32,000 nucleotides of DNA from an uncultured Bacilli bacterium (GTDB lineage: Bacteria; Bacillota_I; Bacilli_A; RF39; UBA660). Numbering within the stretch: position 1 is the stretch's first letter; each line of letters begins with the position of its first letter. A program made the translations under genes and the position numbers. The stretch is from the NCBI GenBank assembly GCA_944363715.1, contig CALVUX010000006.1, positions 41,783 through 73,782 on the forward strand, written 5' to 3'. The notes under the pieces are model-generated. The model was not told where the DNA came from. It did no database searches and worked only from the letters and a program-made list of their open reading frames with translations. Shown piece after piece: positions 18,425-32,000 of this stretch.

Positions 18425-18436
18425 TTATTACCTCCT

Positions 18437-20026
18437 TTAAATTAACTTAAACTTATAATATATATCAATATTTTTTTCTTCATCTATCTCTATTCTATCA
18501 ATTAGTGAACTAATTAATGCACGAGATGGATTTTTCATCTCTAAAAATTCTTTAATTTTATCTAGATAAAAATTATCATTAGTTTCCCCATTATTTTCTA
18601 AATTATATAGAGCTCTTTCATATTCTAGTTTCTTTTTCTTTGATTCATTAATCTCTAGAGTCAAGTTGTTGTAAGTTCTCTTATACATTTCTAAAGTTAT
18701 ATTTCCCTCTAATTTATCATTATAGCAAATATCTATTTTTTTATTAGCATTTTCTATTGCGGTCTCTAATCTAAATATTTCTCCTTTAATACTATCTTTT
18801 TTCTTTTTGATTCTATCATTTGTTTTTAATATACTTTCAAGAGTTTTTTCATCTAAATATTTCTTTGCCATTTTTCGTAAATTATCTAAAACTATATTTT
18901 CTATAATTTGATATTTAATAGAATGAGGTGTGCATACATCTTGTTTTTTTCTTTTAGCCCAATAATTACAATTACCATAAATTCGGCTAACCTCTCCATA
19001 TTTTTTAGTTTGTTGTTTATGTTCTCTAAATCCAATCGTATGCTTACAATCTTTACAATATATTAAACCACGAAGTAAAAGTTTATCAGTTATGCCATTA
19101 CCTTTGCCACGATTTTTATTACTCTTAAACATTTCTTCGGCAAGTTCAAATGTTTCTTTAGCAATTATGGGTTCTACTGCACCAACTGATATAATCCAAT
19201 CATTTTCTTTATTATGAACTCTTTTTTTAGATTTGTAATTAACTTTCCTTTGACGACATTGTGTCAGATTTCCAATATAAGTTGGATTTTTAAGAATATC
19301 ATTAACTGTCCTCGTTGCCCAAACACCATAATGAACATTGTCTTGTCCTAACTTCATATTTTTTTGCATACTAGGTGTTGGTATATGTTCACTTGTTAAA
19401 GTGTCACATATTTTGCTTAAACTATCGCCACTTGTAAACATATCAAATATTCTTCTAACCACATTAGCAGATTCTTCATCAATTTCAAGTTTGTGCTTAT
19501 CTTCTTCATTCTTTTTATAGCCATAAGGAGCGTATGCTCCAACAAATAAACCATTTCGTTTTTTAGTATATAAAGAACTTCGGAGTTTATTTGATATATC
19601 TTTAACATACATATCATTAAAAGCACTTTTAAATACTAACATATCATTTGCTGAACTATCTCTTTTAAAAGTATCTACCCCATCATTAACTGCTACATAT
19701 CTAATGTTATGTTCTGGAAAATATCTTTCTACATAATAACCAAACTCAATATGGTCTCTACCTAATCTTGATGTATCTTTAGTTATAATCATATTTATTT
19801 TCTTTTCTTCGCAGTCTTTAATCATACGATTAAATCCTACTCTATCAAAAGTTGTTCCAGATACACCATCATCTATATATTCATCTACAAATAATAAATC
19901 ATTATCTCTAATATAATTTAAAAGCAAATCTCTTTGTGTAGAGATACTACCACTCTCACCTAACCTTTCATCTTCTCTAGATAATCTTAAATATATTCCT
20001 ACCTTATAGGTTGTGTCTGTTACCAT
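18437..20026 (-). CDS. Large serine recombinase (integrase)
   Basis: Resolvase catalytic domain (YLRLSREDE, SISTQR), recombinase domain, Cys-rich zinc ribbon (CKDCKH...CNYW...C) and a C-terminal coiled coil. 529 aa. Confidence 0.92.
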   Translation of the reverse strand: MVTDTTYKVGIYLRLSREDERLGESGSISTQRDLLLNYIRDNDLLFVDEYIDDGVSGTTFDRVGFNRMIKDCEEKKINMIITKDTSRLGRDHIEFGYYVERYFPEHNIRYVAVNDGVDTFKRDSSANDMLVFKSAFNDMYVKDISNKLRSSLYTKKRNGLFVGAYAPYGYKKNEEDKHKLEIDEESANVVRRIFDMFTSGDSLSKICDTLTSEHIPTPSMQKNMKLGQDNVHYGVWATRTVNDILKNPTYIGNLTQCRQRKVNYKSKKRVHNKENDWIISVGAVEPIIAKETFELAEEMFKSNKNRGKGNGITDKLLLRGLIYCKDCKHTIGFREHKQQTKKYGEVSRIYGNCNYWAKRKKQDVCTPHSIKYQIIENIVLDNLRKMAKKYLDEKTLESILKTNDRIKKKKDSIKGEIFRLETAIENANKKIDICYNDKLEGNITLEMYKRTYNNLTLEINESKKKKLEYERALYNLENNGETNDNFYLDKIKEFLEMKNPSRALISSLIDRIEIDEEKNIDIYYKFKLI

Positions 20027-20038
20027 TTCTACTCCAAT

Positions 20039-20194
20039 CTATAAGTTCGAGATTATATCGGTATTTATTATACCATTATTTTCGTATAAATTAAATTCTT
20101 TATCTAGAAAAGATGCTAAAAAATTACTTATTAATTCATTAAGTGTTATTCCATTTTCATTAAAAATATTATTTACTTTATATTCTTTTTCCAT
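20039..20194 (-). CDS. Possible 51-aa ORF upstream of the recombinase
   Basis: My own translation gives MEKEYKVNNIFNENGITLNELISNFLASFLDKEFNLYENNGIINTDIISNL. It fills the gap upstream of the recombinase on the same strand. No motif recognised. Confidence 0.3.
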   Translation of the reverse strand: MEKEYKVNNIFNENGITLNELISNFLASFLDKEFNLYENNGIINTDIISNL

Positions 20195-20327
20195 AGGGCA
20201 CCTCTATAAATGTATATGCACCTAAATTAATATTATTTTGTATAAGTTTGTCTATCTTCATTAAATACCTCCTTTGTCTAAATTTGCTGTTTTTTCTAAC
20301 ATATTACATTCAATCCTTTCTTCTTTT

Positions 20328-20747: not shown

Positions 20748-20889
20748 TTTTTGCTCCTTTCATTTTAATTTATTTAGTTATTTAAATTATTAAAATAATT
20801 TTAAATTTATATTATTTATTATAATTATTTATTAATATTATTTATTCTGTTAGAAGATTCTTGCTATTATATATAGCAAGATACTGCTA

Positions 20890-21171
20890 CTAACTATAGA
20901 AGATATTTGCTAAATATATTCTTCGTATATTAGGTTCATTTTCTACTTTAATATATTTTTTTCTTTTTAATGAAGTTATGCAACTTGTAATAGTTCTCTT
21001 TGATACTTTCATATGATTACTTAAATACCTATTATTCGCATAACAAAAACCCTCTTGCATAGTTAAAGTAGTGATTAATCCCATTAATAGTTTAGCAGTA
21101 GAAGAAACATCTTCATCTAATAGAACTATCATTGGTACTTGTACATATTTTAAATTACTTATATCTGTCAT
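20890..21171 (-). CDS. Small winged-helix/HTH protein
   Basis: AAAGGAGG RBS. YLSNHMKVSKRTITSCITSLKRKKYI is HTH-like, as seen in replication-module or regulator proteins of mobile elements. Confidence 0.55.
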   Translation of the reverse strand: MTDISNLKYVQVPMIVLLDEDVSSTAKLLMGLITTLTMQEGFCYANNRYLSNHMKVSKRTITSCITSLKRKKYIKVENEPNIRRIYLANIFYS

Positions 21172-21203
21172 ATTATCGTCCTCCTTTCCTTATTTTTTTA
21201 AAC

Positions 21204-21230
21204 AAAAAAACTTGTAAAATATCTTACAAG
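21204..21230 (-). terminator. Rho-independent terminator (minus strand)
   Basis: CTTGTAA (21211-21217) pairs with TTACAAG (21224-21230). On the minus strand it is followed by seven T (plus-strand A-run 21204-21210). Confidence 0.6.
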
Positions 21231-21386
21231 TCATACCGATATAAACTACAAAAAGGCAATACTAACCCAGAGACCTTATTTTAAATCCTGTCTCTAGGAT
21301 TGAAGTATTTTAGTCTTATAGACTAGGTTCTAATATAAATCTACGAACATTTACTGAACCTTTATTTGTTAGCGATTTAATCTTTT

Positions 21387-21704
21387 CTAACAAAACTCGT
21401 ATGTGTATAATCCTCTGCTATATTCAATGAACTTTATATATTTATTATCTTCTAATATTTGTAAGTTCTTTTTGAATCCAACATTTGTTATACTTAAGTG
21501 ATTTTGAACTCTACCTATACTTATGCTTGTGAACTTACTTCTTTGTGATTGTTCTGCACAAAGTATTTTGTATATAAGTTTAGTTTCAAACTTTATATTC
21601 TTGTCTTTCCATATCTTTGGATTAATTAATTCTAGTTGTTTGTTCTTCGACATACATTTGATTTCCTCCCTTCCTGTATTCAATAATTGTTTTATTGTGT
21701 ACAT
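21387..21704 (-). CDS. Hypothetical small protein (possible wHTH)
   Basis: 105-aa ORF divergent from the XRE repressor gene, in the position of a cro/excisionase-like partner. Start uncertain (21704 or the internal Met at MSKNKQ). Confidence 0.5.
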   Translation of the reverse strand: MYTIKQLLNTGREEIKCMSKNKQLELINPKIWKDKNIKFETKLIYKILCAEQSQRSKFTSISIGRVQNHLSITNVGFKKNLQILEDNKYIKFIEYSRGLYTYEFC

Positions 21705-21783
21705 CTGTACTCACTGACAAATTAATCTTAACATAGTAAATACTAACCTGTCAATACTTTTTTATTCATATTTTGCATTTTTG

Positions 21784-21812
21784 TTGACTTTTGTACTCAT
21801 TTGGTGTATGAT
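21784..21812 (+). promoter_or_regulatory. Sigma-A promoter of the XRE repressor gene
   Basis: TTGACT (21784-21789), 17-nt spacer, TATGAT (21807-21812). This places the transcription start after the tracked ATG 21815 and supports ATG 21833 as the start codon. Confidence 0.6.
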
Positions 21813-21832
21813 TAATGTGTGAGGTGAAAAAA

Positions 21833-22333
21833 ATGTCTAGTGATAAAACTATTGGTGAAGTAATTGCCGAAGCTAGAGAAGAAAAAAATCTATCTCAAAG
21901 ACAACTTGCAAAACTTGCTGGAATTAATAGTTCAGGTTTATCTAAAATAGAAGCAGGAGAAAGAGACCCTAGTCCTAAAATATTAAGAAAGATAAGTAAA
22001 TATATTGATGTTAATTATAATGATTTAATGTATAAAATGGGATTAGGTATTGAAGTTAGTCCATTAAATCCTTTTATTAAAGACTATTATTCTAACTTAA
22101 AAGGAAATGAATTAAATGAGGCAGAAATTAATGTTTTAGGTAATAAACAAAATTTAGAAAAATTAGTTTTATCTTGTGAAGAAAAACTAAAAGATAAAAA
22201 CATATTAGAAAGCGAAAAAGATTTATTACTACACACTATTGAAGATACAAATTACCAAATTAATACACAACAAGAAATAATAAACTTAATTCAAAGTTTA
22301 AAAGTAAAGGAGAGAAATAGAAATGCGAAATAG
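21833..22333 (+). CDS. cI-like XRE-family repressor
   Basis: HTH_3 motif LSQRQLAKLAGINSSGLSKIEAGERDPS. GAGGTG RBS before ATG 21833. Divergent arrangement with a small minus-strand gene. Confidence 0.85.
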   Translation: MSSDKTIGEVIAEAREEKNLSQRQLAKLAGINSSGLSKIEAGERDPSPKILRKISKYIDVNYNDLMYKMGLGIEVSPLNPFIKDYYSNLKGNELNEAEINVLGNKQNLEKLVLSCEEKLKDKNILESEKDLLLHTIEDTNYQINTQQEIINLIQSLKVKERNRNAK

Positions 22334-22751
22334 AAAAATATTAAATATTTTAGTTATACTATTATGTATATTTGTTATAGTAAGTTTTGTATTAACACAA
22401 ACTATTGCAACTGAATATTTTAAGAATATGTTTTGGGTTGCTAGTATGTTTCTTATGTGTGGTGTATTATTAGATCTTAATGCGTGGAGCAAATTAGGAT
22501 TAGATGTTGATAAAAACAAATCAAAAACTATTAGGAGAGGTTTTGATGATAGTACAACATTATTAGTTGTTTTTTATGGTAGTTTACTTTTAATAATTGT
22601 ATTTTTTAATCAGTTTAATAACGAAGTAATGAAAAACAACTATGTCATAATCGGATACTTTATTATGACAATAGAATTTGTATTATTTAATTATCTATCA
22701 ATATGGAATGCTAAAAAAGATACTATTAAATTATTAAAGGATAATAAATAA
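22323..22751 (+). CDS. Integral membrane protein (about 4 TM helices)
   Basis: Four hydrophobic segments. AAAGGAG RBS. The start overlaps the stop of the repressor gene. Confidence 0.7.
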   Translation: MRNRKILNILVILLCIFVIVSFVLTQTIATEYFKNMFWVASMFLMCGVLLDLNAWSKLGLDVDKNKSKTIRRGFDDSTTLLVVFYGSLLLIIVFFNQFNNEVMKNNYVIIGYFIMTIEFVLFNYLSIWNAKKDTIKLLKDNK

Positions 22752-23092: not shown

Positions 23093-24673
23093 CTATCTTG
23101 TTTTTCCCTTTGATTCTATATTCATTTCATATGAATATAGTCTGTCTAATTGTTCAGGTGTAATGTGAATCACTTTCCCACCTTTCGGATTAATTCTTTC
23201 TCCACCAAATACTATCCATATTGCATCAAGTGGCATATCTGGCATTGAAGCTTCTCCATCAGTAAATATTATTTTATTTTCTACTCTTCTTGAAAAAGCA
23301 CCTACAGCAACATCAAAATCAGTTCCTCCACCACCTTCAAATCGCATATTTTCTATATCTTCTTCTGTTCTAATTTCATGAAATCCATAAAATTCTGTAT
23401 CAAAACATCCTACTTTTAATTTAGTATGTTGTAATATATTCTTACATTCTCTTAAAAAGTTCTTTAATAATACTTCATTTATTGAACCACTTGTATCAAG
23501 AACAATTTCAGTTTCTGGCATTGGTTGCTCTTCTAAATTAGCAGTAACAACTCCATCTTCTAATGTAGCATTTTTATATGACCAATCTACATCATATTTA
23601 ATTGCTTCTCTCAAAACATATCGCCAATCAACTATTGGTTTTGCAATACCAATATCATTAACTGTTCTAACATCTCTATTTGTTGAAGTTCCTGCTTGTG
23701 ATGCTTGTTTAGAAATTGCTTCTTTTAATTCTTCAAGTTGCTTTTTCTTATCTTCAAGATTTTTCTTAAAAGCATCTTTTTCTCCCATGCTCTCAAGTTC
23801 TTCTTGTTTCTTTTCTAGTTCATTCTTTTCTTTTTCTTTTGTATCTTTTCCTAAAAGTTTATCTAATAAGCTCTCTTTTTTATCAGATTTTTCTTGCTGC
23901 TTTTTGTGCTTTTTAACTGCTTGCTCCCACATACTATGAGTATCATGTCCAACATCTTGCTTTGATTTATCTTCTTCTTGTAAATCTTTTCCAGAGTCAC
24001 CACCGCTTTGTTCTTGGGATTGCTTATCTTGTTCTTGTGAATTTCCACTATTAGAACTATTTTGTTGTTGAGATTGTTGCTGTTCATCTCCACTTTGTCC
24101 TGCTCCACTATCTTGTTTCTGGTCTTCTTGATTTTGGGAATCGCCAGTTTGTTGTTGTGATTGAGATTGTTGTTGACCATTTTCGCCTTGACTACTACCA
24201 CTGCTTTGTTGTTGATTTTGTTGCTGATTACCTTGTTTACTTTGACTATTACCTTGTCCATTTTGTTGTTGTCTTTGTTGTTTTTCTTGTAATAGTTTGT
24301 CATATAACTGTTCAGCATCGTAATTAATAGCTTCTGCCATATCAACACCCCCCAGAGCCATTTTTAATCCGTCTCGTTTTAAAAACTGATTAATAACACC
24401 ATCTGTAGCAATATTCCATAACTCTGGATCTTTGCCTTCACTTCTTAAGATATGATTAAATGCAATATGACATACTTCATGAGCAAATATAAAAGTTTGT
24501 TCTTCAACACTTAAACTTTCTAAATATTTTGGATTATAGTAAATTGTTTCTCCATCTGTACCTGCGGTTAGTATATCTTTGTTTTCTTTATAATCTACAC
24601 TTGCTACTACACTCCCAAAAAAGGGATATTTAACAAGCATTTTTCTTTTTAATGCTGCAATATCATATTTCAT
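23093..24673 (-). CDS. Metallopeptidase-like (DUF2201_N-type) + VWA-domain protein with a long low-complexity linker
   Basis: N-terminal FAHEVCHIAFNH (HExxH). Roughly 200 aa of Q/S/E/K-rich linker. C-terminal VWA-like domain with a MIDAS-type VLDTSGS. GAGG RBS before ATG 24673. Confidence 0.85.
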   Translation of the reverse strand: MKYDIAALKRKMLVKYPFFGSVVASVDYKENKDILTAGTDGETIYYNPKYLESLSVEEQTFIFAHEVCHIAFNHILRSEGKDPELWNIATDGVINQFLKRDGLKMALGGVDMAEAINYDAEQLYDKLLQEKQQRQQQNGQGNSQSKQGNQQQNQQQSSGSSQGENGQQQSQSQQQTGDSQNQEDQKQDSGAGQSGDEQQQSQQQNSSNSGNSQEQDKQSQEQSGGDSGKDLQEEDKSKQDVGHDTHSMWEQAVKKHKKQQEKSDKKESLLDKLLGKDTKEKEKNELEKKQEELESMGEKDAFKKNLEDKKKQLEELKEAISKQASQAGTSTNRDVRTVNDIGIAKPIVDWRYVLREAIKYDVDWSYKNATLEDGVVTANLEEQPMPETEIVLDTSGSINEVLLKNFLRECKNILQHTKLKVGCFDTEFYGFHEIRTEEDIENMRFEGGGGTDFDVAVGAFSRRVENKIIFTDGEASMPDMPLDAIWIVFGGERINPKGGKVIHITPEQLDRLYSYEMNIESKGKTR

Positions 24674-24683
24674 AACTTATACC

Positions 24684-25076
24684 TCAAATTCGTGCAACTA
24701 ATGAGAATATTTCTTCATTTATCTTATCTTTATTTATTTCGTTTGCTGTTACAATTATCACACAACTTTTTGGTAATTCAAATGTAGATATTTTTCTATG
24801 TTCTAACAATTCACAGAATTTTAATTGTTCTTCTTTTGCTATTGCATCAATTTTATCAATCACTAAAATTTTACTTGCATTTGTACTTAATATTTCACTA
24901 AGCCATTTTGGTGGCATAAAATCAGTTCCATCATAATGACCATTTAACTCTTTAACATCAACATTGGCAGGTAATACAACAGCACCATTTATATCTTTAC
25001 CAAATATAAAATCAACTAAAATTGGTGCAACATTTGCTCTTATATATGATAGTAATATTTCTTTCTTATCTCCCAT
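24684..25076 (-). CDS. Small degenerate AAA-like protein (no P-loop)
   Basis: KILVIDKIDAIAKEEQLKFCELLEHRKISTFELPKSCVIIVTAN parallels the Walker-B to sensor-1 region of the upstream ATPase, but no GxxxxGK[ST] motif is present. Its start overlaps the upstream stop as TAATG (25074-25078). Confidence 0.6.
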   Translation of the reverse strand: MGDKKEILLSYIRANVAPILVDFIFGKDINGAVVLPANVDVKELNGHYDGTDFMPPKWLSEILSTNASKILVIDKIDAIAKEEQLKFCELLEHRKISTFELPKSCVIIVTANEINKDKINEEIFSLVARI

Positions 25077-26998
25077 TATCTTCTTATACCTCCTTCTGAC
25101 ATTTCAGCAAGTTTTACTTCTGCAAGTCTTTCTAATTTACTTTCATCGCCATGTGTCCATAAAGCATCAAAAATCGCCCCAAACTCTGCTCCTAATCCTG
25201 TAACAAAACCTCTTACTTTTTCCAAGTTGTTATCATCAACTTGTGATAATCCCATAGTTGTTGCATATCTTTCTGCTGTATTTAATGCTTGTATGTCTCT
25301 TTGGGTATAATTTTCATTTATTACATCATCTAGTGTTATAACTTGTTGATTACAAAATTGTACAAATTCTCTTGTTATATCCTCTCCTACTAATGCTCTT
25401 AACATTTCTGGACTTCCTGTTGCGTATAACATTTTAGAAGCCATTTCCCATTTTCTTGGATCTGCATTAGGTTTTTCACCATCATATTTACTTCTTAATG
25501 TTTCGCCTTTTTTATAAGCAATATATGAATAAATAGCAGGGTGTATATTATGTTCACTTGCCCATTTTAACCAACTTTCAGCAGTTGTTTTAATATAAAC
25601 ATGAGCAAATCTATTAAATAATGGTTCTGCTAATTGATTTGCCGCTAATGAATCTTTCATATCATTTCCTGCTGCAACAATTCTTGCATTATCTGGTAAT
25701 TTCCAAATACCATTAACTTCTCTATCTAATACTATATTAAATGCTATACCTTGAATACTTGGTAGTGCATTTGTAATTTCATCTAAAAATACAATATGAA
25801 ATCTATCTGGCTCTTTTTCGCATTTTTCTTCTAATTTTTTTAACCAACTTGGCTTAACATCAATCATCTCACCTGTTGCTTGATTGTAAACACTTTTACC
25901 ATTTAAACTTTCTGGTGTCGCATTTCTTAGATAAATAATTACACAATCAGGATCTATTTGTTTTACCCTTGCAGATTTACCTTCTGATGAAGGGCCATGC
26001 AAGAATACTGCTATACCACTTTCTATTGCACCCTTAATAATTTCTTCTTCACTAACTTGTCCAAATTTTAAACCATAAGGATTTCTTCTTTTTTCAGCTT
26101 GTTTTCTTTCTTCTTCAAATTGAGTTTTTTCTTCTGGTGTCATATCTTGAATACGAGTAAATGTTGCTGTTTGAGTCAAATCGCGTATCATATATCTATC
26201 AAGATATTCCTTCATTTCTGTTCTACTAAAATCACCTTTATAATTATGATTTCTATCAAGAAATCTTATTCCAGAAACTAACCCTAATTTTGATACTAAT
26301 ATTCCTGTTCTATCATCAATTAACCATTTTACAGGCGATACTTCTACCCAAACATAATCGCCATCTCTATATTTAACACCATTTGAAAGTTTAAATTTAT
26401 TTCCACCAAAATCAGAATTTGCTCTTATACGAATATATCTCTTTCCTTGATATTCATATTCTTCATAAGTTACTGGTTTGAATCCTGTATCATAATCATC
26501 ATATTTTACTGAATCAAATGTATAACTTCTTCCGGTTTTATTCATTCCTCTATTATATTCTGATTCTAATATACTTTGCATTCTTGAATCAGCAGCATAT
26601 TGTGGATATTCTCCATATTCTACTTCTTCAGTTCCGTTGTATCCCCTCACTCTGTTCGGGAAGATTTGAGAAAATATTACAGAAGATTGCAAAGCTGGGC
26701 GAACAACACCATTGCGTGCGTAGCTATATAAGCTGCTCCTATAACCATCCTTATTGACCGCGCGGACATCATTATCGTTATCATCAGATCTAGTCCAAAA
26801 CCAACTAGTTCTGCCTTTTAAAGAACTATCTTCATTAATATTATAATCTGTATCTTCGCATAAATAGCTACCTGTCAATACACATAAATCTGTGATTGCA
26901 GCTTTTGTTCCATACTTTCTTATTACTTCTAATTGAGATTCTTTATTATTACCCCAAATTTGTCCTTCCGACAATAAAGTTAAATCTTGATTATTCAT
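25076..26998 (-). CDS. DGR target protein: N-terminal VR-bearing domain fused to a MoxR/AAA_5-type ATPase
   Basis: Start placed at ATG 26998 (MNNQDL), 8 nt after GGTGA. No signal peptide. The VR encodes VRAVNKDGYRSSLYSYARNGVVRPAL. ATPase motifs: GPSSEGKS (Walker A), IVFLDEI (Walker B), VAAGN (sensor 1) and LFNRF. Confidence 0.85.
   Translation of the reverse strand: MNNQDLTLLSEGQIWGNNKESQLEVIRKYGTKAAITDLCVLTGSYLCEDTDYNINEDSSLKGRTSWFWTRSDDNDNDVRAVNKDGYRSSLYSYARNGVVRPALQSSVIFSQIFPNRVRGYNGTEEVEYGEYPQYAADSRMQSILESEYNRGMNKTGRSYTFDSVKYDDYDTGFKPVTYEEYEYQGKRYIRIRANSDFGGNKFKLSNGVKYRDGDYVWVEVSPVKWLIDDRTGILVSKLGLVSGIRFLDRNHNYKGDFSRTEMKEYLDRYMIRDLTQTATFTRIQDMTPEEKTQFEEERKQAEKRRNPYGLKFGQVSEEEIIKGAIESGIAVFLHGPSSEGKSARVKQIDPDCVIIYLRNATPESLNGKSVYNQATGEMIDVKPSWLKKLEEKCEKEPDRFHIVFLDEITNALPSIQGIAFNIVLDREVNGIWKLPDNARIVAAGNDMKDSLAANQLAEPLFNRFAHVYIKTTAESWLKWASEHNIHPAIYSYIAYKKGETLRSKYDGEKPNADPRKWEMASKMLYATGSPEMLRALVGEDITREFVQFCNQQVITLDDVINENYTQRDIQALNTAERYATTMGLSQVDDNNLEKVRGFVTGLGAEFGAIFDALWTHGDESKLERLAEVKLAEMSEGGIRR
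26689..26768 (-). repeat. DGR variable repeat (VR)
   Basis: 80-nt gapless match to 28293-28372 with 10 mismatches, all opposite template adenines (minus strand). It lies in frame inside the target CDS. Confidence 0.9.
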
Positions 26999-27063
26999 TT
27001 TTATCATCACCACATCTATATTTTACCATATGAAATCATTTTTTCTTACTATTTTTGCGAATT

Positions 27064-28092
27064 TTATATTTTTTTATCTAAATTGGATAATAATTTGTCC
27101 ATACTCTTTTCATTAGAATGTTTTAAATGTGCTTTAAAAGCGTTAATTCTCATACCAACATATTCTTCATCAATTACGGATTTATCTTTAAGTTTTCTTA
27201 TGGTTTTAATATGTTTTCTCATTCTCTGCTTAGATGAAAACCTAAGTTTTCTAATAACCTTACCACTATTTGTTAAAATATGATTAAAACCTAAAAAATC
27301 AATTCCATTATATGCAAGTCCTATTTGTGTTTTTTGATTAAGTTCCAAATCTAATTTTTCAATACAAACTTTATTTATTTTTTCTAAACAATATTGTAAA
27401 TACTTTTTATCACGATGAAGTAGAATAAAATCATCCATATATCTTACGTAACTTTTAATTTGCAATTCTTCTTTGATCAATCTATCAATTCTATCAAGAT
27501 AGTATAAAGCAAACCATTGACTTGATTGATTACCTAATGCTAACCCCCTTTCTAAATTATCAGGTTGTTCGTTTATAATTTTTTTTATAAACCAAAATTC
27601 ATCATCTGTAAAGTCAATCCTTTTTAGATTATTTATTAAAATATTATGGTTAATACTAGGAAAATATTTGCGAATATCACATTTCAAATAATAGACTTTA
27701 TTATCATTATTCTTAAAATATTCTTTTTGCAAAAAATATTTCAATCTATCCATTCCATATTTTGTTCCTTTGCCTTTTCTACAAGCAACATTATCATTTA
27801 TTAGTTTTTTTTCAATCTTTGGAATTAAAACATTATCGCAAAAACATCTTAATACAATTCTATCTCTATATGGAAGAGCTTGTATTAATCTTTCTTTTGG
27901 TTCATATATTATAAATTCCTTATATTTTCCTACTTTATATTTCCTTGATATTATTTCTTTTTGTAATTTATAAATATTCTCTGAAATGTTTACTTCAAAT
28001 CTTATAATTTCACCTTTATGTTGTTTTGATCTTCTACATTTTTTATGTGCATCATATAAGTTTTCAAAGCTAAATATATTTTCTAAATTCAT
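27064..28092 (-). CDS. DGR reverse transcriptase
   Basis: ATG 28092 (MNLENIFSFENL) follows GGTGGTGA. RT motifs include LGNQSSQ (DGR-type [ILV]GxxxSQ) and YMDDFILL (YxDD). At 342 aa it has no maturase or endonuclease extension. It lies immediately 3' of the TR. Confidence 0.92.
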   Translation of the reverse strand: MNLENIFSFENLYDAHKKCRRSKQHKGEIIRFEVNISENIYKLQKEIISRKYKVGKYKEFIIYEPKERLIQALPYRDRIVLRCFCDNVLIPKIEKKLINDNVACRKGKGTKYGMDRLKYFLQKEYFKNNDNKVYYLKCDIRKYFPSINHNILINNLKRIDFTDDEFWFIKKIINEQPDNLERGLALGNQSSQWFALYYLDRIDRLIKEELQIKSYVRYMDDFILLHRDKKYLQYCLEKINKVCIEKLDLELNQKTQIGLAYNGIDFLGFNHILTNSGKVIRKLRFSSKQRMRKHIKTIRKLKDKSVIDEEYVGMRINAFKAHLKHSNEKSMDKLLSNLDKKI

Positions 28093-28292
28093 ATAATCAC
28101 CACCAAAAAAGTGCCCCTTTTTAACCTTCAAAAATACATACATATCGTTGTTGGTGTGAGCACTAAAATCTATCCACCGCACTATTATAGCGGTTAGAAA
28201 AGTAAATAATTCCTTTGCTTTAAAGTACTGATATATTTTACTTAAAATATATTTCTCTGACCTGTTTTTTAGATTTTATAATCTCTTCAAAA

Positions 28293-28372
28293 GCAAATCT
28301 GGGCGAACAACACCATTGCGTTTGTATCTATATTTGTTGTTCCTATTACCATTCTTATTGACCGCGCGGACA
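28293..28372 (-). repeat. DGR template repeat (TR)
   Basis: Intergenic copy between the Avd-like gene and the RT. Read in the VR frame it gives the Asn-rich VRAVNKNGNRNNKYRYKRNGVVRPDL. Confidence 0.9.
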
Positions 28373-28384
28373 AAGACAAAGCCC

Positions 28385-28418
28385 TGCGCCAAAGGCGCAA
28401 AACTAGCAATGCCGCTAG
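28385..28418 (-). other. Two GC-rich hairpins between avd and the TR
   Basis: TGCGCC-AAA-GGCGCA (28385-28399) and CTAGC-N6-GCTAG (28403-28418). They are conspicuous in AT-rich DNA and may be part of the DGR RNA. Confidence 0.5.
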
Positions 28419-28462
28419 AATAAATTATTTACTTAATTAAAAACCTTTCGGTTTAAAATCCT

Positions 28463-29050
28463 TTAATTATTTGTACGACTGTTCCATCTAGAATCGTCGC
28501 TTTTCTTCCATGCAGCTATTAAGTTAATAGATTCACCAATTTGAATAGAGATTTGTTTAAATTGCCTAGATAAAATACAATTTGAATTTTCTGCTACCAT
28601 TGAAATATATCCTAGCATTTTTAACTTTACTATTGCATCCTTTTGATATTCTTCTCTCTTTTTTTTATTATCTAAGCAATCTATTCTTACAAAATTTGCT
28701 TGTAAAAGCAACTCTAATATTTCTAATGATAAATTTTGCATGCGATTAACAAACACCCCTCTATATTTAGCTGGAGATTTTTCAGTAACTGCAATTATAT
28801 AAGCTCCTAATTTTTTTACAACTGTAATAACCATTAAATCATTTGCATTAAATGGAATCTTTTCAATTCTTTCTAATTCACCATCTTTTTCAATATTTTC
28901 TTTTACTTTATTCTTATTAAATTTTTGATTATTTGCTGTTGCCAGAGCTTGTTTTACTGCAACTTTGTCATCAACACTATTTAAATTATCAATAGTATTT
29001 TCTAATGTTTTTGGAACTTTAAGATTGTTGGTTCTACTAACTTGTAACAT
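28463..29050 (-). CDS. avd: Avd-like accessory variability determinant with an N-terminal extension
   Basis: The C-terminal ~125 aa (KSPAKYRGVFVNRMQNLSLEILELLLQAN...KMLGYISMVAE...INLIAAWKKS) fit the four-helix-bundle Avd pattern. The gene sits directly 5' of the TR. Start placed at ATG 29050. Confidence 0.7.
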   Translation of the reverse strand: MLQVSRTNNLKVPKTLENTIDNLNSVDDKVAVKQALATANNQKFNKNKVKENIEKDGELERIEKIPFNANDLMVITVVKKLGAYIIAVTEKSPAKYRGVFVNRMQNLSLEILELLLQANFVRIDCLDNKKKREEYQKDAIVKLKMLGYISMVAENSNCILSRQFKQISIQIGESINLIAAWKKSDDSRWNSRTNN

Positions 29051-29172
29051 CAAATCACGCCCTTTTCTATATAAATATAACTTAATTACAATATAAAGCA
29101 CTTCCATAGTATTAGAAGTGTCTTAAAAAGGTAGATTTAGGTACTGCTAACTACTACTTATATATTTTATTT

Positions 29173-29661
29173 TTAATTGTTTAAAAAATAACTTACAACT
29201 GATAGTTCTAAAACTATCCACAATATTGTTTTTCTAATATTTTTTTCCTCAATCAAATTACTTATACAATATTCTTTTACATATGAAATTTTTACAGGTA
29301 ATTTAATCTTTCTACCATTTATACCAATTATTTTTAAAATCAAATCAGACGCTATACAACTGCCTTCTTCAAAAATAGCCCCATTTTCTTCTTTATTATC
29401 ATAAAAAAATTCAGTTACATCATCAACTAATCTATTATTTTCTCTAAATTTATCTACCTTACTACTTTTCTGTATTTCTTCTAATTTTGCATTAATTAAT
29501 TGTTCTAATACATTTTCTACTTCTTCATTAGATAAGTTATTTAATGAAGAAGTAAGTTCTTCTAAATCATAATAATATTTGATTGAGGTAATAATTTTAA
29601 TTTTGTCATCTAAAATTTCTGATATTTTTTTTACATATTCATTTAAATTTTCTTTTTTCAT
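29173..29661 (-). CDS. Hypothetical protein with a C-terminal hydrophobic segment
   Basis: AAGGAG RBS lies 6 nt before ATG 29661. No motif recognised. Confidence 0.55.
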   Translation of the reverse strand: MKKENLNEYVKKISEILDDKIKIITSIKYYYDLEELTSSLNNLSNEEVENVLEQLINAKLEEIQKSSKVDKFRENNRLVDDVTEFFYDNKEENGAIFEEGSCIASDLILKIIGINGRKIKLPVKISYVKEYCISNLIEEKNIRKTILWIVLELSVVSYFLNN

Positions 29662-29769
29662 ATCTAGCTCCTTTTTCTTTACTTTATTATTATAACATAT
29701 TTTCAACGAATAGCATTCGGTTTTTTAGTTAAATTAATATTTAATGGGAAAATATTATTGGTGATAACT

Positions 29770-30219
29770 ATGTTTGATAATAATATAAGATATTGTAGAG
29801 AAGAATTAGAGATGACACAAGCTGAACTTGGTTATATATTTGGAGTATCAGATTCAGCTGTTCGCTCTTGGGAAACTGCCCATGACTCTATACCATTACC
29901 AAAACTTATTAAATTTTGTAATATGTATGATTATTCATTGGATTTCGTATGTGGTTTAATAAGAAATAATATTAAATATGGGAAATTTACAACTGACAAA
30001 ATTAAAATAAGTAAAAAACTAAAAGAATTAAGAAACAAATTAGGAATTTCCCAACAAAAATTATCTGATGATTGCAAAATTTCACAAACTACTTATAGTG
30101 GTTATGAAACAGGTAACTATTTAATTAACACAACGAATTTATACTATATATGTAAAACCTATAATGTATCAATGGATTGGGTAGTTGGTAGAACGAATAA
30201 TTCTAAAATTAATAGATAA
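29770..30219 (+). CDS. XRE-family regulator with two tandem HTH domains
   Basis: MTQAELGYIFGVSDSAVRSWE and ISQQKLSDDCKISQTTYSGYE modules. GGTGA RBS before ATG 29770. Same architecture as 11662-12108. Confidence 0.8.
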   Translation: MFDNNIRYCREELEMTQAELGYIFGVSDSAVRSWETAHDSIPLPKLIKFCNMYDYSLDFVCGLIRNNIKYGKFTTDKIKISKKLKELRNKLGISQQKLSDDCKISQTTYSGYETGNYLINTTNLYYICKTYNVSMDWVVGRTNNSKINR

Positions 30220-30258
30220 AAAGCGAGAGTATGCTATAAAAATAACATATTCTCGCTT

Positions 30259-30654
30259 TTATAGTATATTTAATGAATAATAATAGTCATATACATTTAA
30301 TTGATTATTAACTTTAATATTAATTTCATTATTATTAAAATCATATTGAAAAATATTAAATAACATTTCAACAGAAAACTTTTGTTTTTCCAATAATGAT
30401 AATTCCATATGCTTTGCTGAAATAAATAGTAGATTATTATATTTAGCAGAGTTGGTGATTAACTTTTTAGAGTTAGGATCAAGTATTAATAATACTTCTT
30501 GAAATAACTTAATAAAATTATCAATATTATAGTTTGGTACAAATCCTAAATTTTCAAATAAATTTATTGCTAATCTAACTTTATCAATACCACTTAACTT
30601 ATCTACCATATTAACTAATGTTATAACATTTTCAGTATTATTACTTAATAACAT
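30259..30654 (-). CDS. Hypothetical protein
   Basis: 131-aa ORF with an AAAGGA RBS. No motif recognised. Confidence 0.5.
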   Translation of the reverse strand: MLLSNNTENVITLVNMVDKLSGIDKVRLAINLFENLGFVPNYNIDNFIKLFQEVLLILDPNSKKLITNSAKYNNLLFISAKHMELSLLEKQKFSVEMLFNIFQYDFNNNEINIKVNNQLNVYDYYYSLNIL

Positions 30655-30830
30655 AATATCATCCTTTCTTTTTTTGTCATTTAAGGCAATTTATTTTAAG
30701 ATACAGATAAGATATTAAGCCTTACATTAAAACTCCAATATAGGCGATTTAATAGGGTTAAATATCTTTTTTTCTGTACTTATATTTATCACTCTAAAAA
30801 GTAAAAAAATCAATACTATTTTTTATCTTT

Positions 30831-32000
30831 TTATCTACTTAAATCAAAGTCATCAGATTTCTCATAATCTTTTTCTAATTCATCTATATCCTTAACTCTT
30901 GTTTTTAAATAATCTGGTGCCTCTATATAATCAAATAATTCATCTTGTTTAGTTGTTCCTCTAGATATTTTAATTACATCATTCATATCAAAATCATTAT
31001 TATCATAATAATCTTTAACTTCAAGAGTTGTTTCGTCTTTTGCCTTTTCATTACCAAATTGTAATATCTTTCTAAAAAATTTTTTAATTGCTTCTAATAT
31101 TGCTTCAATATAGGTTCTTAATTTATTATTTTCATCAGTCAAGGTTTGATTTCTAGTAGTAAGAGATTTAACTTCTTTTTTTAAATTTGTATTTTCTTTT
31201 TCTAGTATTTGATGACTTTTAGTAAATGTTTTTACTTCATTAAATAATTGTTCTATTTTAGGTTGAAATTCTAATACTTTTTTAGTTTCTTTAATAACAT
31301 TATTCATAGATTCAAAGGTTTCGTTTTTAACCTTAATATATTCATTACCAAAAATAGTATTTTTACTAGATTTCATTTTATCATTTAAATCGCTTATGGC
31401 TTGTTCTAAATTTTTATTAATAGTTTCCACTTTATTTTCATAATATCTGGTTGTTTTCTTTAATTCTTTTGTTTTTAAATGTTCTCTACCACTTCCTTTA
31501 ATACCTCTTTCTAAATCAAATCCTTTTTCAGTTAATCGTTCGTGATACTTATCTTGTAATTGAGATAGATGTATTTTATCTTTTATAAATTGCTTTTTTG
31601 ATATTGTCCATCTTTCAGTATTAGTTCTTTTATCTAATTTTTTAACAAGTGGTACTACTACACAATGAATATGTGGTGATTTTTCATCTAAATGAATAGT
31701 CGCGTGAAGTATTTGTTCTTTCTTATAACCTAAATCATTATAAACAAACTCCATACAAGTATTTGCCCACTTCATTAAATGATCATTACTCATATTTTCA
31801 AAGAATTTAGGTGAAGCAGTAAATAATAATTCATCTGCTACACAATTTCTTGATTGATTAAGCATTTGAGTATAACTTCTTTGTCTTTCTTTTCTTTCAG
31901 TTTTTTGTTTTTCATTATGTTGTTTTTCATACTCTTTTGTTATCTCTTTAAATCTTTTAACATATTTATAATTTAATGGTACTAATTCTAAATTTTTATA
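30831..32000 (-). CDS. mob: MOBV-family (Mob_Pre) relaxase, 5' end outside window
   Basis: HLDEKSPHIHCVVVP matches the HxDE...PHxH relaxase motif. Long C-terminal coiled coil. The frame stays open upstream of the tracked Met to base 32000 (...YKNLELVPLNYKYVKRF...). Confidence 0.85.
   Translation of the reverse strand, partial: YKNLELVPLNYKYVKRFKEITKEYEKQHNEKQKTERKERQRSYTQMLNQSRNCVADELLFTASPKFFENMSNDHLMKWANTCMEFVYNDLGYKKEQILHATIHLDEKSPHIHCVVVPLVKKLDKRTNTERWTISKKQFIKDKIHLSQLQDKYHERLTEKGFDLERGIKGSGREHLKTKELKKTTRYYENKVETINKNLEQAISDLNDKMKSSKNTIFGNEYIKVKNETFESMNNVIKETKKVLEFQPKIEQLFNEVKTFTKSHQILEKENTNLKKEVKSLTTRNQTLTDENNKLRTYIEAILEAIKKFFRKILQFGNEKAKDETTLEVKDYYDNNDFDMNDVIKISRGTTKQDELFDYIEAPDYLKTRVKDIDELEKDYEKSDDFDLSR

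Follow-up and report, generated by a model that had tools for sequence, protein, structure and literature searches.

A diversity-generating retroelement and its AAA+ ATPase target operon on a mobilizable element of uncultured gut Bacilli

Introduction

Two similar repeats in the genome of an uncultured Bacilli bacterium, one inside a gene and the other beside a reverse transcriptase (RT), raise the question of whether they are the variable repeat (VR) and template repeat (TR) of a diversity-generating retroelement (DGR), whether that element has been active recently, and what kind of protein it diversifies. The stretch of 32,000 nucleotides in which they lie is referred to here as the window; its features are collected in Table 1, and related loci are given L numbers.

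Results

The two repeats align without gaps over 80 nt at an offset of 1604, as found by a repeat search and base-by-base comparison. Similarity ends sharply on both sides, and there is no third copy within the window. The copies differ at ten positions (plus-strand 28298, 28322, 28323, 28327, 28334, 28335, 28337, 28340, 28347 and 28353); at all ten the plus strand reads T in the 28.3-kb copy (A in the coding, minus-strand orientation) and G, C or A in the other. As 27 of the 80 nt in the 28.3-kb copy are T, the hypergeometric chance of 10/10 mismatches falling on T is ~5e-6. The TR and VR translations, VRAVNKNGNRNNKYRYKRNGVVRPDL and VRAVNKDGYRSSLYSYARNGVVRPAL respectively, differ at eight codons, four of which are AAY Asn. 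The TR begins 90 nt past the stop of the Avd-like gene (28463) and ends 200 nt short of the likely RT start (ATG 28092). An earlier note on this DNA had claimed the gapless pair with its offset and ten mismatches, their restriction to T with G, C or A as replacements, the translations with eight changed codons, the intergenic position of the TR at these distances from its neighbours, and the in-frame VR. Self-comparison of the window and the ORF coordinates reproduced each of these, and no mismatch in the window falls at a non-adenine template position. The TR codons AAG, AAA (twice) and AGA are mutable to stop codons, and stop codons do occur inside the VR in two relatives.

Table 1. Features of the DGR, its target operon and the carrier element (positions in the window).
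Feature	Position	Strand	Description
Large serine recombinase of carrier element	18437..20026	-	Pfam Resolvase, Recombinase, Zn_ribbon_recom
Metallopeptidase-vWA partner	23093..24673	-	HEVCH zincin motif, DTSGS MIDAS motif, long Q/S/E/K-rich linker
AAA-like protein	24684..25076	-	130 aa, without P-loop; Pfam AAA 0.0035 (sub-threshold)
Target gene	25076..26998	-	640 aa from ATG 26998 (ORF list)
Stem-loop within target CDS	26642..26662	-	UUCCC-GAACAGAGUGA-GGGGA, ~33 nt 3' of VR
GC-rich 3' end of TR/VR homology	26695..26704	-	GTTCGCCCAG; candidate IMH-like boundary
VR	26689..26768	-	residues 78-103 of target, in frame
DGR reverse transcriptase	27064..28092	-	342 aa from ATG 28092; LGNQSSQ and YMDD
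Structured DGR RNA	28171..28462	-	5' flank, TR and spacer with conserved helices
H2 3' arm, H8, A-rich bases	28173..28212	-	H2 3' arm 28200-28212, then stem-loop H8 28173-28198, then A-rich bases
H7 stem in spacer	28231..28252	-	9 bp, tetraloop cap; 9 pairs, 2 compensatory, 100% paired
H5 5' arm	28290..28297	-	UUUGCUUU, pairs with 28214-28221 (AAAGCAAA); 8 pairs
TR	28293..28372	-	invariant, A-rich (27 A in 80 nt), non-coding
H2 5' arm	28422..28434	-	AAGUAAAUAAUUU, pairs with 28200-28212; 13 pairs
H1 hairpin	28435..28460	-	GAAA tetraloop, just past avd stop; 9 pairs, 3 compensatory, 100% paired
Avd-like accessory gene	28463..29107	-	mechanical ORF, 214 aa
ORF upstream of avd	29173..29706	-	177 aa
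Mob_Pre (MobV-type) relaxase	30831..31865	-	same element; Pfam Mob_Pre 6.6e-26

The GC-rich end GTTCGCCCAG is kept in the TR and VR of all loci that carry the DGR, and may serve as the 3' boundary of the VR. The copies split right after it (CAG-A in the TR, CAG-C/T in the VR), with non-A mismatches following in L037, L050 and L070. The 3'-most mismatch in the window pairs a TR A at 28298 with a VR C at 26694, coding for Asp and Ala respectively. Among the 13 genomic relatives with a DGR, this mismatch is A>C wherever the trimmed TR/VR alignment covers the site; the listing of downstream sequences gives a VR C in 12/13 and a T in L033, and T is also found in three metagenome loci (L083, L090 and L091). 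Because the base is nearly constant in relatives and the homology stops right after it, this is probably a boundary or a selected position and not a site of free mutagenesis. The stem-loop inside the target gene was predicted independently by RNAalifold. Its stem variants (CCCC/GGGG, CCUC/GAGG, CCAC/GUGG and CCCU/AGGG) are compensated despite amino acid changes, and the stem is intact in 21/25 copies with a DGR (the four failures being L033 paralogs), in 9/10 loci with RT remnants and in 14/45 loci without an RT. Compensated in lineages with the DGR and decayed in those lacking it, it may act in cis as a hairpin or cruciform for retrohoming.

The mechanical ORF of the RT starts at GTG 28182, within RNA helix H8. 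The top PDB match of the protein was Bordetella bRT (8ub7; 4.3e-37, residues 33-334), with LGNQSSQ aligned to IGSLTSQ of bRT; the next matches, group II intron and retron-type RTs among them, reached ~1e-7 to 1e-8. It also matched PHROG 1423 (7e-106) and Pfam RVT_1. A tblastn search against phages returned 123 records, all below 60% identity, with phage nd12 the best (42.6% identity, 2e-74); the phages listed (nd12, Faecalibacterium phages and Vibrio phage VP585, for example) are known DGR carriers. The best NCBIfam match was a sub-threshold group II RT/maturase, and PADLOC recognised the RT alone in the window, via DRT-type RT models. Rfam gave no match to a group II intron or retron RNA. The gene immediately upstream of the TR matches PHROG 3206, 'Avd protein of DGR' (1.2e-13), and falls below the curated cut-offs of Pfam bAvd (1e-4) and NCBIfam DivGenRetAVD (3.6e-5). 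Conservation of its product among relatives sets in at residue ~12-20, the Avd-like four-helix region spans residues ~88-207, and the gene lies upstream of the TR in 13/13 relatives with a DGR. The DGR-type RT with both motifs and the Avd-like gene 5' of the TR, as described in the earlier note, were recovered by these searches, and the RT proved not to be of the retron or group II type. The ORF upstream of avd is kept in the closer DGR-bearing relatives only and is probably outside the DGR core.

RNAalifold and pair counting over 15 distinct relatives revealed 60 conserved pairs in the DGR RNA, with 98.7% of cells paired and 19 pairs showing compensatory changes; 0/500 shuffles reached the observed value, and slid controls were 37-51% paired. 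The layout agrees with the elements described for Bordetella and 207 other DGRs. H2 (97.9% paired, seven pairs with compensatory changes) encloses the entire TR as a loop, and is the counterpart of the avd:Sp 'cPRT Stop' duplex in Bordetella (Handa et al.). The 5' arm of H5 sits directly 3' of the final TR/VR-homologous base; H5 is 100% paired with two compensatory pairs (UG/CA to CA/UG, four sequences), and corresponds to the Bordetella template:primer duplex. It is separated from the 3' arm of H2 by 1 nt here, whereas the Bordetella duplexes are 2 nt apart. By the same analogy, priming would be from A28214 and templating would begin at A28298. H7 is the analogue of the Avd-binding stem-loop; Handa et al. 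describe tetraloop-capped stems that closely follow the TR and are usually of 9 bp. The 3' arm of H2, with H8 and the A-rich bases that follow, is likewise the analogue of the cPRT-Stop stem-loop with its trailing adenosines.

Across 13 related genomic loci with a DGR, 133/138 TR/VR mismatches fell at TR adenines (A>G 56, A>C 47, A>T 30). Pairs from metagenome loci gave 10/10, 9/9, 13/13, 16/16 and 18/19. L033 has non-A mismatches. The TR stretch of the window is identical in L003 and L090 and carries 1-3 changes in L019, L041 and L086, yet despite these near-identical TRs the VRs of the closest relatives all differ. Among 120 homologs that are 91-98% identical, mean entropy was 1.72 bits at the 14 VR codons with a non-synonymous TR-adenine change, against 0.17 bits for the remaining 12 codons of the VR and 0.10 bits beyond it, and 42 distinct VR peptides occurred among 121 sequences. 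L003 is 97.6% identical to the window over 14.7 kb; the two differ at 14 of 80 nt in the VR (14/14 at TR-adenine positions) and at 14 of 1843 nt in the rest of the target CDS. Since the L003 VR is unlike that of the window only at TR-adenine positions, activity is later than the very recent divergence of the two. The outcome is seen directly, as variation limited to the 13-14 codons that hold TR adenines. The earlier description as 'active or recently active' is borne out by hypervariability limited to TR-adenine codons in >100 near-identical homologs and by the near-isogenic comparison with L003, and the sequences show a genuine, recently active DGR.

The start of the target was placed at ATG 26998 from relatives with a TAA just upstream. 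An N-terminal module of ~305 aa, made up of a DUF6273-like VR domain (residues ~1-110) and a beta-rich subdomain, precedes a divergent ATPase of the AAA+ type that makes up the C-terminal half (Walker A GPSSEGKS, Walker B IVFLDE). DUF6273, reported to be C-lec-like and to end with the VR on its C-terminal side (PMC10743442; PMC11792537), scored sub-threshold in the window target (1e-4 to 2e-3) and was matched by 9/32 members of the target family (best E 7e-7). AlphaFold modelled the N-terminal module with a pLDDT of 89 and pTM of 0.86; against the PDB this model had no match better than E=0.14, which leaves the C-type-lectin fold unconfirmed, and against BFVD it had weak matches (E=0.01), of which ranks 2 and 44 were phage proteins with DUF6273. 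Going by its DUF6273 matches, the VR domain is probably C-type-lectin-like. The ATPase matched Pfam AAA_5 and AAA at sub-threshold level only (AAA_5 0.005), had no sequence homolog found in the PDB, and gave a poor structure model. No transmembrane segment or signal peptide is apparent in the target (maximum Kyte-Doolittle hydropathy over 19 residues, 1.13). A diversified N-terminal tip on a cytoplasmic AAA+ ATPase is an unusually rare target architecture. The N-terminal position of the VR, the AAA+ ATPase nature of the target and the probably non-random character of one of the ten differences were overlooked in the earlier reading.

The operon runs along the minus strand in the order avd-like gene, TR, structured spacer, RT, target with VR, small AAA-like gene and metallopeptidase-vWA gene. 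The start of the AAA-like gene overlaps the target stop codon, and it directly follows the target in most loci. The metallopeptidase-vWA gene (Pfam DUF2201_N 6e-38, DUF2201 (VWA-like) 1e-13) follows the target in almost all of the 75 loci, and the ATPase works with this zincin-peptidase/vWA partner. Cassette and operon sit on an integrative mobilizable element found in uncultured gut Bacilli, whose serine recombinase is syntenic in L003 and L053 and whose relaxase is syntenic in L001, L003, L053 and L084; in what is seen of the element there are no virion genes. The target operon is conserved but has often lost the DGR cassette: 13/75 genomic loci keep it, ~10 retain RT fragments only, and in L001 the same mobile element has lost avd, the TR and the RT N-terminus by deletion.

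Discussion

The minus strand from 23.1 to 29.1 kb is very likely a complete DGR with its target operon, a judgement that takes in both the following mechanism and the reading of the target as a sensor. The region 28462-28171 would be transcribed into the DGR RNA. In this RNA, covariation shows three helices: the 13-bp long-range duplex that loops out the TR, the 8-bp duplex of the spacer with the sequence just past the TR 3' end, and the 9-bp tetraloop hairpin. By analogy with Bordetella, these three helices may place the RNA on an RT-Avd complex. The cDNA would then be cis-primed from the spacer, begin at about A28298, and run 5'-ward through the TR with misincorporation opposite adenines. 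It would replace the target VR (26768-26689), guided by the shared end GTTCGCCCAG and probably also by the stem-loop within the coding sequence.

The DGR of Bordetella phage BPP-1 (avd-TR-brt with target mtd; PDB 8ub7 series) shares with the window adenine-specific TR-to-VR transfer, the RT motifs [I/L]GxxxSQ and YMDD (37% of aligned positions similar, 4e-37) and an Avd-type gene immediately 5' of the TR. In both, the spacer RNA has a duplex to the TR 3' end beside a ~13-bp duplex between the two flanks of the TR, as well as a 9-bp stem-loop capped by a tetraloop and a trailing stem-loop with adenosines; both also have a GC-rich 3' end of the VR/TR homology and a stem-loop downstream of the VR. 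However, the target here lies downstream of the RT and has an N-terminal VR, whereas mtd lies upstream of avd and has a C-terminal one; the stem-loop, ~33 nt from the VR, has an 11-nt loop and is within coding sequence; the Avd has a ~70-aa N-terminal extension; what is diversified is a cytoplasmic ATPase and not a tail-fibre protein; and the carrier is an integrative mobilizable element of gut Bacilli.

The closest RTs among phage records belong to gut-phage DGRs with DUF6273 targets (the nd4/nd12 'tentaclins', and Faecalibacterium phages Lelie, Toutatis and Brigit, the latter at ~35% identity). In nd12, whose unannotated avd ORF (between 3065 and 3701) and TR position were read from the sequence, a second target follows the RT as in the window. 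In both groups the N-terminus of the protein holds a DUF6273 (C-lec-like) domain with the VR on its C-terminal edge, and the TR end GTTCGCCC encodes 'VRP'. The tentaclins are virion-associated and carry a C-lec domain of ~270 aa followed by Ig/Fn3 domains, whereas a domain of ~110 aa and a novel beta-rich subdomain are fused to an AAA+ ATPase here. Direct sequence similarity between the targets is marginal (E=0.28), and no phage record spans N-terminal module and ATPase together.

DGR targets that are cellular and cytoplasmic, and that are linked to a MoxR-like/AAA ATPase and to a vWA protein with a peptidase, also occur in NTPase conflict systems, namely the VMAP/MoxR-vWA ternary systems of cyanobacteria and Thiohalocapsa and the CLec-AAA ATPase targets of CPR bacteria. 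Their targets have been read as hypervariable antigen or ligand sensors (PMC7159879; PMC10907252). There, the CLec/FGE domain lies at the C-terminus, usually that of the vWA component or of a STAND NTPase, whereas the variable domain here is N-terminal and on the ATPase itself. Unlike them, the window locus has no VMAP component or effector-associated domains that we found, its hosts are small-genome gut Bacilli and not multicellular bacteria, and its RT groups with gut-phage DGRs.

The ATPase and peptidase-vWA pair could instead be a MoxR-type chaperone/cochaperone for the assembly or processing of a mobile-element or phage-like structure, the variable domain adapting the binding of substrates or host factors; this we consider possible but rather unlikely. 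Both families are common in phages (ATPase to PHROG 1297, 2e-47; peptidase-vWA to PHROG 1314, 3e-67), 718 phage records match the ATPase, many of them from jumbo phages, and PADLOC had no match to the pair. The same peptidase-vWA and MoxR pairing has been described in jumbo phages, with a DUF2201_N metallopeptidase and DUF2201 vWA, and was read as a virion-assembly chaperone system (Iyer et al., 2021; PMC7824862). Although the two-protein core is the same and the ATPases are 29-31% identical, the variable N-terminal module is missing from the phage ATPases, which are not targeted by a DGR. The absence of virion genes also weighs against a chaperone, as does the lack of an obvious gain from a hypermutated substrate-binding tip in assembling a fixed structure. 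The published view of cellular DGRs is one of diversified sensors coupled to MoxR/vWA or AAA ATPases (PMC7159879; PMC10907252), and tandem paralog expansion, seen in L026 and L033, is typical of conflict genes.

That the DGR is a frozen relic in this genome, intact-looking but immobile, with VR changes left from past activity, seems improbable. Cassette loss is common, L001 has the same element in truncated form, and L033 combines non-A mismatches with a broken hairpin, all of which would suit a relic. In the window, however, the RT ORF is unbroken and retains its catalytic motifs, and the TR, every RNA helix and the CDS hairpin are intact too; there are no non-A mismatches across the 80 nt, and the nearly identical L003 has another VR, altered only at TR-adenine positions. 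A gene fragment duplicated by chance or recombination, undergoing AT-biased decay beside an unrelated retron, group II intron or defence RT, has next to no chance of being correct: the genome is very AT-rich and the NCBIfam and PADLOC assignments lean that way, but this reading is refuted by the adenine pattern, repeated in >20 independent loci with substitutions toward G, C and T and not toward A/T, by an RT match to bRT ahead of the next PDB matches by ~29 orders of magnitude together with the Rfam result, by the Avd gene and by the Bordetella-like RNA elements.

DGRs are well known and the mechanism proposed for this recently active one is textbook; the rare part is the target architecture. 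We infer that the ATPase-peptidase machine recognises its ligand or substrate through the surface of the variable domain. By analogy with the NTPase conflict systems, the variable ATPase system would most likely be the sensor within a system of conflict or defence type that the integrative mobilizable element carries.

Adenine-specific divergence of the repeat pair

A repeat search of the window returned a single 80-nt direct repeat, formed by the template repeat (TR) and the variable repeat (VR) at an offset of 1604 and 88% identity (Table). The two copies differ at ten positions, and in a base-by-base comparison every one of these was a T on the plus strand of the 28.3-kb copy, that is, an A on the minus strand; with 27 T in the 80 nt, the hypergeometric probability of all ten mismatches falling on T is ~5e-6. 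The homology stops sharply at both ends, and no further VR-like copy was found on either strand of the 32 kb. The repeat coordinates, offset and mismatch positions given in the earlier note were all reproduced, and its peptide readings, eight changed codons and four AAY codons are correct. Mismatches at non-adenine template positions, which it had named as evidence against a diversity-generating retroelement (DGR), number none among the ten in the window.

A scan of a genome collection gave 75 related loci from uncultured gut Bacilli and ‘Tenericutes’ plus some Clostridia (hosts include UMGS1110, Coprobacillus sp. CAG:605 and Clostridium sp. CAG:417). Thirteen of them keep the full cassette of avd, TR and reverse transcriptase (RT), hereafter DGR+ loci, and about 10 keep RT fragments. 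Across the 13, 133 of 138 TR/VR mismatches lie at TR adenines (A>G 56, A>C 47, A>T 30), and further loci, found in metagenomes by means of the TR-end pattern, have 10/10, 9/9, 13/13, 16/16 and 18/19 of their mismatches there; viral contigs scanned with this pattern yielded nothing. A blastn self-scan found no TR in most relatives, an absence that an A-tolerant sliding scan confirmed and that is therefore not a shortfall of sensitivity.

Homologs of the target number >3000 in public data and abound in the gut metagenomes of humans and animals. Among the 120 closest homologs (91-98% identity), all columns above 1.2 bits fall within residues 87-101 (645-aa numbering). Entropy averages 1.72 bits at the 14 VR codons with a non-synonymous TR-adenine change, 0.17 bits at the other 12 VR codons and 0.10 bits outside the VR, and 121 sequences hold 42 distinct VR peptides. 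Locus L003 is 97.6% identical to the window over 14.7 kb; the VR (80 nt) alone holds 14 differences between the two, each one at a TR-adenine position, and the remaining 1843 nt of the target gene hold just 14. This comparison and the population-level hypervariability are strong indirect evidence, drawn from sequence, of recent DGR activity.

The 3'-most difference (28298/26694) reads ...CCCAG-A in the TR and ...CCCAG-C in the VR (Asp vs Ala). It is A>C in the 13 genomic DGR+ loci wherever the trimmed alignment covers the position, and the downstream listing gave C in 12 of the 13 and T in L033, a locus with tandem operon copies; T also occurs in the related loci L083, L090 and L091. A or G was never seen there, the family-wide motif being RP[A/V], and beyond this position homology decays at once, with a non-A mismatch among the next bases in L037, L050 and L070. 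Because only A>C or A>T occurs and homology decays directly after it, the position appears to be an information-transfer boundary or else strongly selected; free mutagenesis would account for about nine of the ten TR/VR differences.

In-frame stop codons occur in the VRs of two DGR+ relatives (TGA and TAG in L070:8217-8296, TGA in L050:8231-8310), and have their source in the TR codons TAA/AAA. The TRs of the window's lineage, the window's own included (AAG, AAA twice, AGA), are not ‘stop-proof’, unlike TRs with AAY codons only.

Reverse transcriptase, Avd and gene layout

Among solved structures the RT is closest to the Bordetella DGR RT (bRT, PDB 8ub7; 4.3e-37, residues 33-334), with LGNQSSQ aligned to IGSLTSQ of bRT and YMDD conserved. 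The next structures, which include group II intron, retron-type and Cas-associated RTs, match at ~1e-7 to 1e-8, so the DGR-type RT proposed earlier stands, and the retron or group II affiliation that would have spoken against it is not borne out. The RT also matches PHROG 1423 at 7e-106. A tblastn search of 50,697 phage records matched 123, all at <60% identity, and the matches listed are known DGR carriers: phage nd12 is the best (42.6%), followed by Faecalibacterium phages, Vibrio phage VP585 and Bordetella phages. An Rfam search at gathering thresholds returned neither a group II intron nor a retron RNA, nor anything else. With a motif 4 of the form [I/L/V]GxxxSQ, YxDD and bRT as its closest relative, the RT belongs by sequence to the DGR clade.

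The Avd-like gene, also proposed in the earlier note, matches the PHROG family ‘Avd protein of DGR’ at 1.2e-13 and stays below the curated cut-offs of Pfam (bAvd, 23 bits vs 40) and NCBIfam (Avd, 24 vs 80); its place 90 nt 5' of the TR is kept in all DGR+ relatives. The 177-aa ORF was rejected as a DGR accessory gene because distant DGR+ loci do not conserve it. ATG 26998 is the most likely start of the target, since a TAA lies just upstream in several relatives, and 28092 that of the RT, where the bRT alignment begins; the mechanical ORF upstream of it overlaps a conserved RNA helix. A scan for promoters gave fewer matches than in shuffles and, this DNA being AT-rich, carries no information. 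PADLOC recognised nothing in the window except the RT, and megablast of 23-32 kb against plasmid and phage collections gave no match.

Coordinates of the mobile-element context, the DGR and target operon, and the RNA helices (H) in the window
Feature	Position	Strand	Remarks
Mobile-element context	16791-22751 and 29758-31865		large serine recombinase (18437-20026), Bro-N protein, several HTH regulators, Mob_Pre relaxase
177-aa ORF	29706-29173	minus	upstream of avd
Avd-like gene	29107-28463	minus	90-nt gap follows, then TR
TR	28372-28293	minus	200-nt spacer follows, then RT
RT	28092 (ATG) to 27064	minus	
Target	26998 (ATG) to 25076	minus	VR at 26768-26689
130-aa ORF	25076-24684	minus	start codon overlaps stop codon of target
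526-aa peptidase-vWA protein	24673-23093	minus	
H1			hairpin with GAAA tetraloop after avd stop
H2	28434-28422 (5' of TR) with 28212-28200 (spacer)		13-bp duplex; 7 pairs compensatory
H5	28297-28290 (UUUGCUUU) with 28221-28214 (AAAGCAAA)		8-bp duplex, immediately 3' of TR/VR homology and 1 nt from H2
H6			small hairpin
H7	28252-28231		9-bp stem with tetraloop
H8			stem-loop after H2, then A-rich sequence

A structured DGR RNA

RNAalifold was applied to the region from the avd stop to the RT start in nine distinct relatives, and pairs were counted in 15 distinct relatives. The six helices outside the TR comprise 60 pairs, with 98.7% of cells paired and 19 pairs showing compensatory changes; none of 500 shuffles scored as high, and slid partners were only 37-51% paired.

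In the Bordetella ribonucleoprotein, a TR:Sp template:primer duplex lies 2 nt from an avd:Sp ‘cPRT Stop’ duplex, which is followed by a stem-loop and adenosines, and the Avd-binding stem-loop is typically a 9-bp stem with a tetraloop; Handa et al. report similar RNA elements in 207 of 278 Avd-containing DGRs, Bacillota included (bioRxiv 10.1101/2023.10.23.563531). The window's H5, H2, H7 and H8 reproduce this layout of duplexes, stem-loop and Avd-binding hairpin. Covariation and layout mark the four as DGR RNA elements, for which priming and Avd binding are predicted. By analogy, cDNA would be primed from about A28214 with A28298 as the first templated base, which would explain why the TR/VR homology ends exactly there.

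A clade-specific GC-rich hairpin (GCGCC-UUU-GGCGC, 28380-28404, minus strand) lies just 5' of the TR in the loop closed by H2, with a compensatory change (GCACC/GGUGC) in the related locus L053. A scan flagged it as terminator-like, yet it sits within the functional RNA.

We regard it as very probable that the mechanism at work in the window is that of a canonical DGR. As such it is ordinary, its mechanism, parts and RNA layout matching the Bordetella paradigm, and what it contributes is a well-supported case from Bacillota, backed by the comparison of >25 loci.

Candidate cis elements within the coding sequence

The VR encodes residues 78-103 of the 640-aa target and so is not C-terminal, a position that is typical of DGRs and not strictly defining. 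Surveys attribute the C-terminal placement of VRs to the freedom from coding constraints that cis-acting retrohoming elements need (PMC8144416, PMC5758913). C-terminal VRs are probably favoured because these elements can then be intergenic (PMC8144416), and for N-terminal VRs (3 of 372) the IMH is forced to overlap coding sequence (PMC5758913). In the window the GC-rich GTTCGCCCAG, a candidate IMH, is common to TR and VR, with homology ending right after it. A stem-loop with a 5-bp stem (26662-26642; UUCCC-GAACAGAGUGA-GGGGA), also predicted independently by RNAalifold, lies inside the target ORF ~33 nt 3' of the VR.

Across DGR+ lineages this stem appears as CCCC/GGGG, CCUC/GAGG, CCAC/GUGG and CCCU/AGGG, and the compensatory changes alter the encoded residues (Pro/Ser/Thr/Leu; Arg/Ser/Lys). 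Of 25 DGR+ copies, 21 have the stem unbroken; the other four are the L033 paralogs, whose VR likewise has non-A mismatches. Loci with RT remnants keep it in 9 of 10 cases. Among the 45 loci without any RT it is intact in 14, and single uncompensated changes are common there. We read the stem-loop as a putative counterpart of the BPP-1 hairpin/cruciform target element, from which it differs in spacing and loop, held under coding constraint. The VR 3' end also forms a 16-nt inverted repeat with 26653-26668, which was rejected for want of compensating changes in relatives. In this DGR nature provides a clear example of an N-terminal VR, and with a covarying stem-loop inside the ORF the coexistence of cis elements with coding sequence becomes testable.

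The target protein and its operon partners

Residues 1-110 of the target give sub-threshold matches to the C-terminal third of the DUF6273 model, which is matched by 9 of 32 diverse relatives (best E 7e-7). For residues 1-305, AlphaFold gave a confident model (57 aligned sequences; pLDDT 89.3, pTM 0.86) with the element order beta-alpha-alpha-alpha, a beta-hairpin (the VR) and beta, then a beta-rich subdomain. Foldseek found no significant match to this N-terminal model in the PDB (best E 0.14) and only weak, non-significant ones in BFVD, two DUF6273 phage proteins among them. Among gut-phage DGR targets, which include the tentaclins with their N-terminal C-lec domain, DUF6273 is reported to be C-lec-like and to carry the VR at its C-terminal edge (PMC10743442, PMC11792537). 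For the VR domain of the window's target a C-lec fold is probable, although the Foldseek searches did not confirm it. Several candidate similarities were discarded: the second subdomain as a permuted half of DUF6273 has no Pfam support, the sole match of an N-terminal profile to PDB sequences, a hemopexin repeat, is spurious, and MCM matches of the full-length model (TM ~0.13) are meaningless, the ATPase half being poorly modelled (pLDDT 62).

Only six proteins were matched when the first 312 residues of a distant homolog served as query. Stand-alone homologs of ~310 aa without the ATPase (P0122-P0126) indicate that the N-terminal module also occurs as an independent protein.

Residues ~320-613 form a divergent AAA+ ATPase, which matches PHROG 1297 (‘ATPase’) at 2e-47 and Pfam at sub-threshold level only (AAA_5 0.005, AAA 0.011). 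Walker A and B motifs are visible, and identity to jumbo-phage ATPases is 29-31%. Neither phmmer nor profile searches found a homolog of the target among PDB sequences. A cytoplasmic location is presumed, as the protein has no apparent hydrophobic segment.

The 526-aa partner fuses a DUF2201_N metallopeptidase to a DUF2201 VWA-like domain (1e-13) with a DTSGS MIDAS motif. Between its HEVCH zincin and DTSGS vWA domains runs a Q/S/E/K-rich low-complexity linker of ~200 aa, encoded by imperfect direct repeats, especially at 24003-24290. The 130-aa protein is AAA-like, lacks a Walker A motif and could be a degenerate subunit that partners the ATPase; the start/stop overlap of its gene with the target indicates translational coupling.

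Mobile-element context, gain and loss of the cassette

The first 16.6 kb of the window are chromosomal (CorA, formate-THF ligase, Tmk, ClpB-like ATPase, CtpB, pilin with sortase). The SpaA/thioester-domain pilin gene and following sortase at 6856-8875 (plus strand) are unrelated to the DGR. From ~16.8 to 32 kb the window carries the recombinase, Bro-N, HTH regulator and relaxase genes listed in the Table, and identity to L003 begins at 17330. Judged by its sequence, this part is an integrative mobilizable element common to L003 and L053.

The operon of target, 130-aa protein and peptidase-vWA protein is conserved in essentially all 75 loci, the 130-aa gene being missing from a Clostridia-like clade (L062-L075), and often occurs as tandem paralogs (L026, L027, L032, L033 and others). 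Arrays of 4-5 tandem target paralogs span L033:8001-17421 and L026:2726-14480; in L033 four copies have an identical VR stretch, with 4 non-A TR/VR mismatches and the downstream hairpin broken. At L001:6407-7947 the window's mobile element carries a deletion that fuses the Mob relaxase gene to RT codon ~103 and removes two ORFs, the 177-aa ORF, avd and the TR. From this junction L001 is a snapshot of DGR loss. With its many DGR-plus, DGR-remnant and DGR-minus versions, the operon offers a natural experiment on how targeted hypermutation is gained and lost.

Known systems compared and possible function

The operon resembles the VMAP/MoxR-vWA ternary system (Kaur et al., 2020) in its vWA component, and has, where that system has a MoxR-type AAA+ ATPase, a target recognised by PHROG and below threshold by Pfam. 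No VMAP, EAD, caspase or trypsin domain was found among neighbouring ORFs, the third conserved gene encoding only the 130-aa protein, and for want of a VMAP component we do not file the operon as such a system. Nor is the target a tentaclin, since no Ig/Fn3 domains were matched and an ATPase makes up its C-terminal half.

Precedents exist for all of the unusual features: N-terminal VRs in tentaclins and in the work of Wu et al. 2018, CLec-AAA fusions in CPR bacteria in the work of Paul et al. 2017 as cited in PMC10907252, DGR-MoxR-vWA associations (PMC7159879, PMC10907252), and the metallopeptidase-vWA architecture next to MoxR ATPases in jumbo phages (PMC7824862). The rarity lies in the target architecture, and we found no published account of the full combination of a minimal N-terminal DUF6273-like VR domain on the ATPase itself, a peptidase-vWA protein and a gut-Bacilli mobilizable element.

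Phage nd12 (L093, OR777946.1, 3440-6777), the closest phage relative by RT, has a second target after the RT, as in the window. Its avd ORF and TR position were read from the sequence without annotation, and the TR likewise ends in GTTCGCCC (‘VRP’). This suggests a common cassette lineage in which an N-terminal VR domain is fused to different C-terminal domains.

By analogy with known systems, we lean slightly towards the variable domain being the sensor of an ATPase/peptidase conflict module; the main alternative is that the ATPase/peptidase-vWA pair has a chaperone or assembly role. A wider reading, which we put forward only tentatively, makes the element a distinct DGR sub-type: the N-terminus of a MoxR-like ATPase that works with a peptidase-vWA protein would have acquired a minimal DUF6273-like variable domain, and the mobilizable element would thereby gain a programmable module for recognition in the cytoplasm. 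With the VR at the N-terminus, both the IMH-like end and the hairpin would be embedded in coding sequence and would co-evolve with the protein through compensatory non-synonymous changes, and the cassette would be repeatedly gained and lost on an otherwise conserved operon.

That the diversified protein is itself an AAA+ ATPase, paired with a peptidase-vWA protein in gut Bacilli of small genome, extends the theme of a DGR-diversified sensor plus NTPase beyond multicellular bacteria and CPR. If the wider reading is true, a gut-Bacilli element would possess an anticipatory, antibody-like defence or exclusion sensor.
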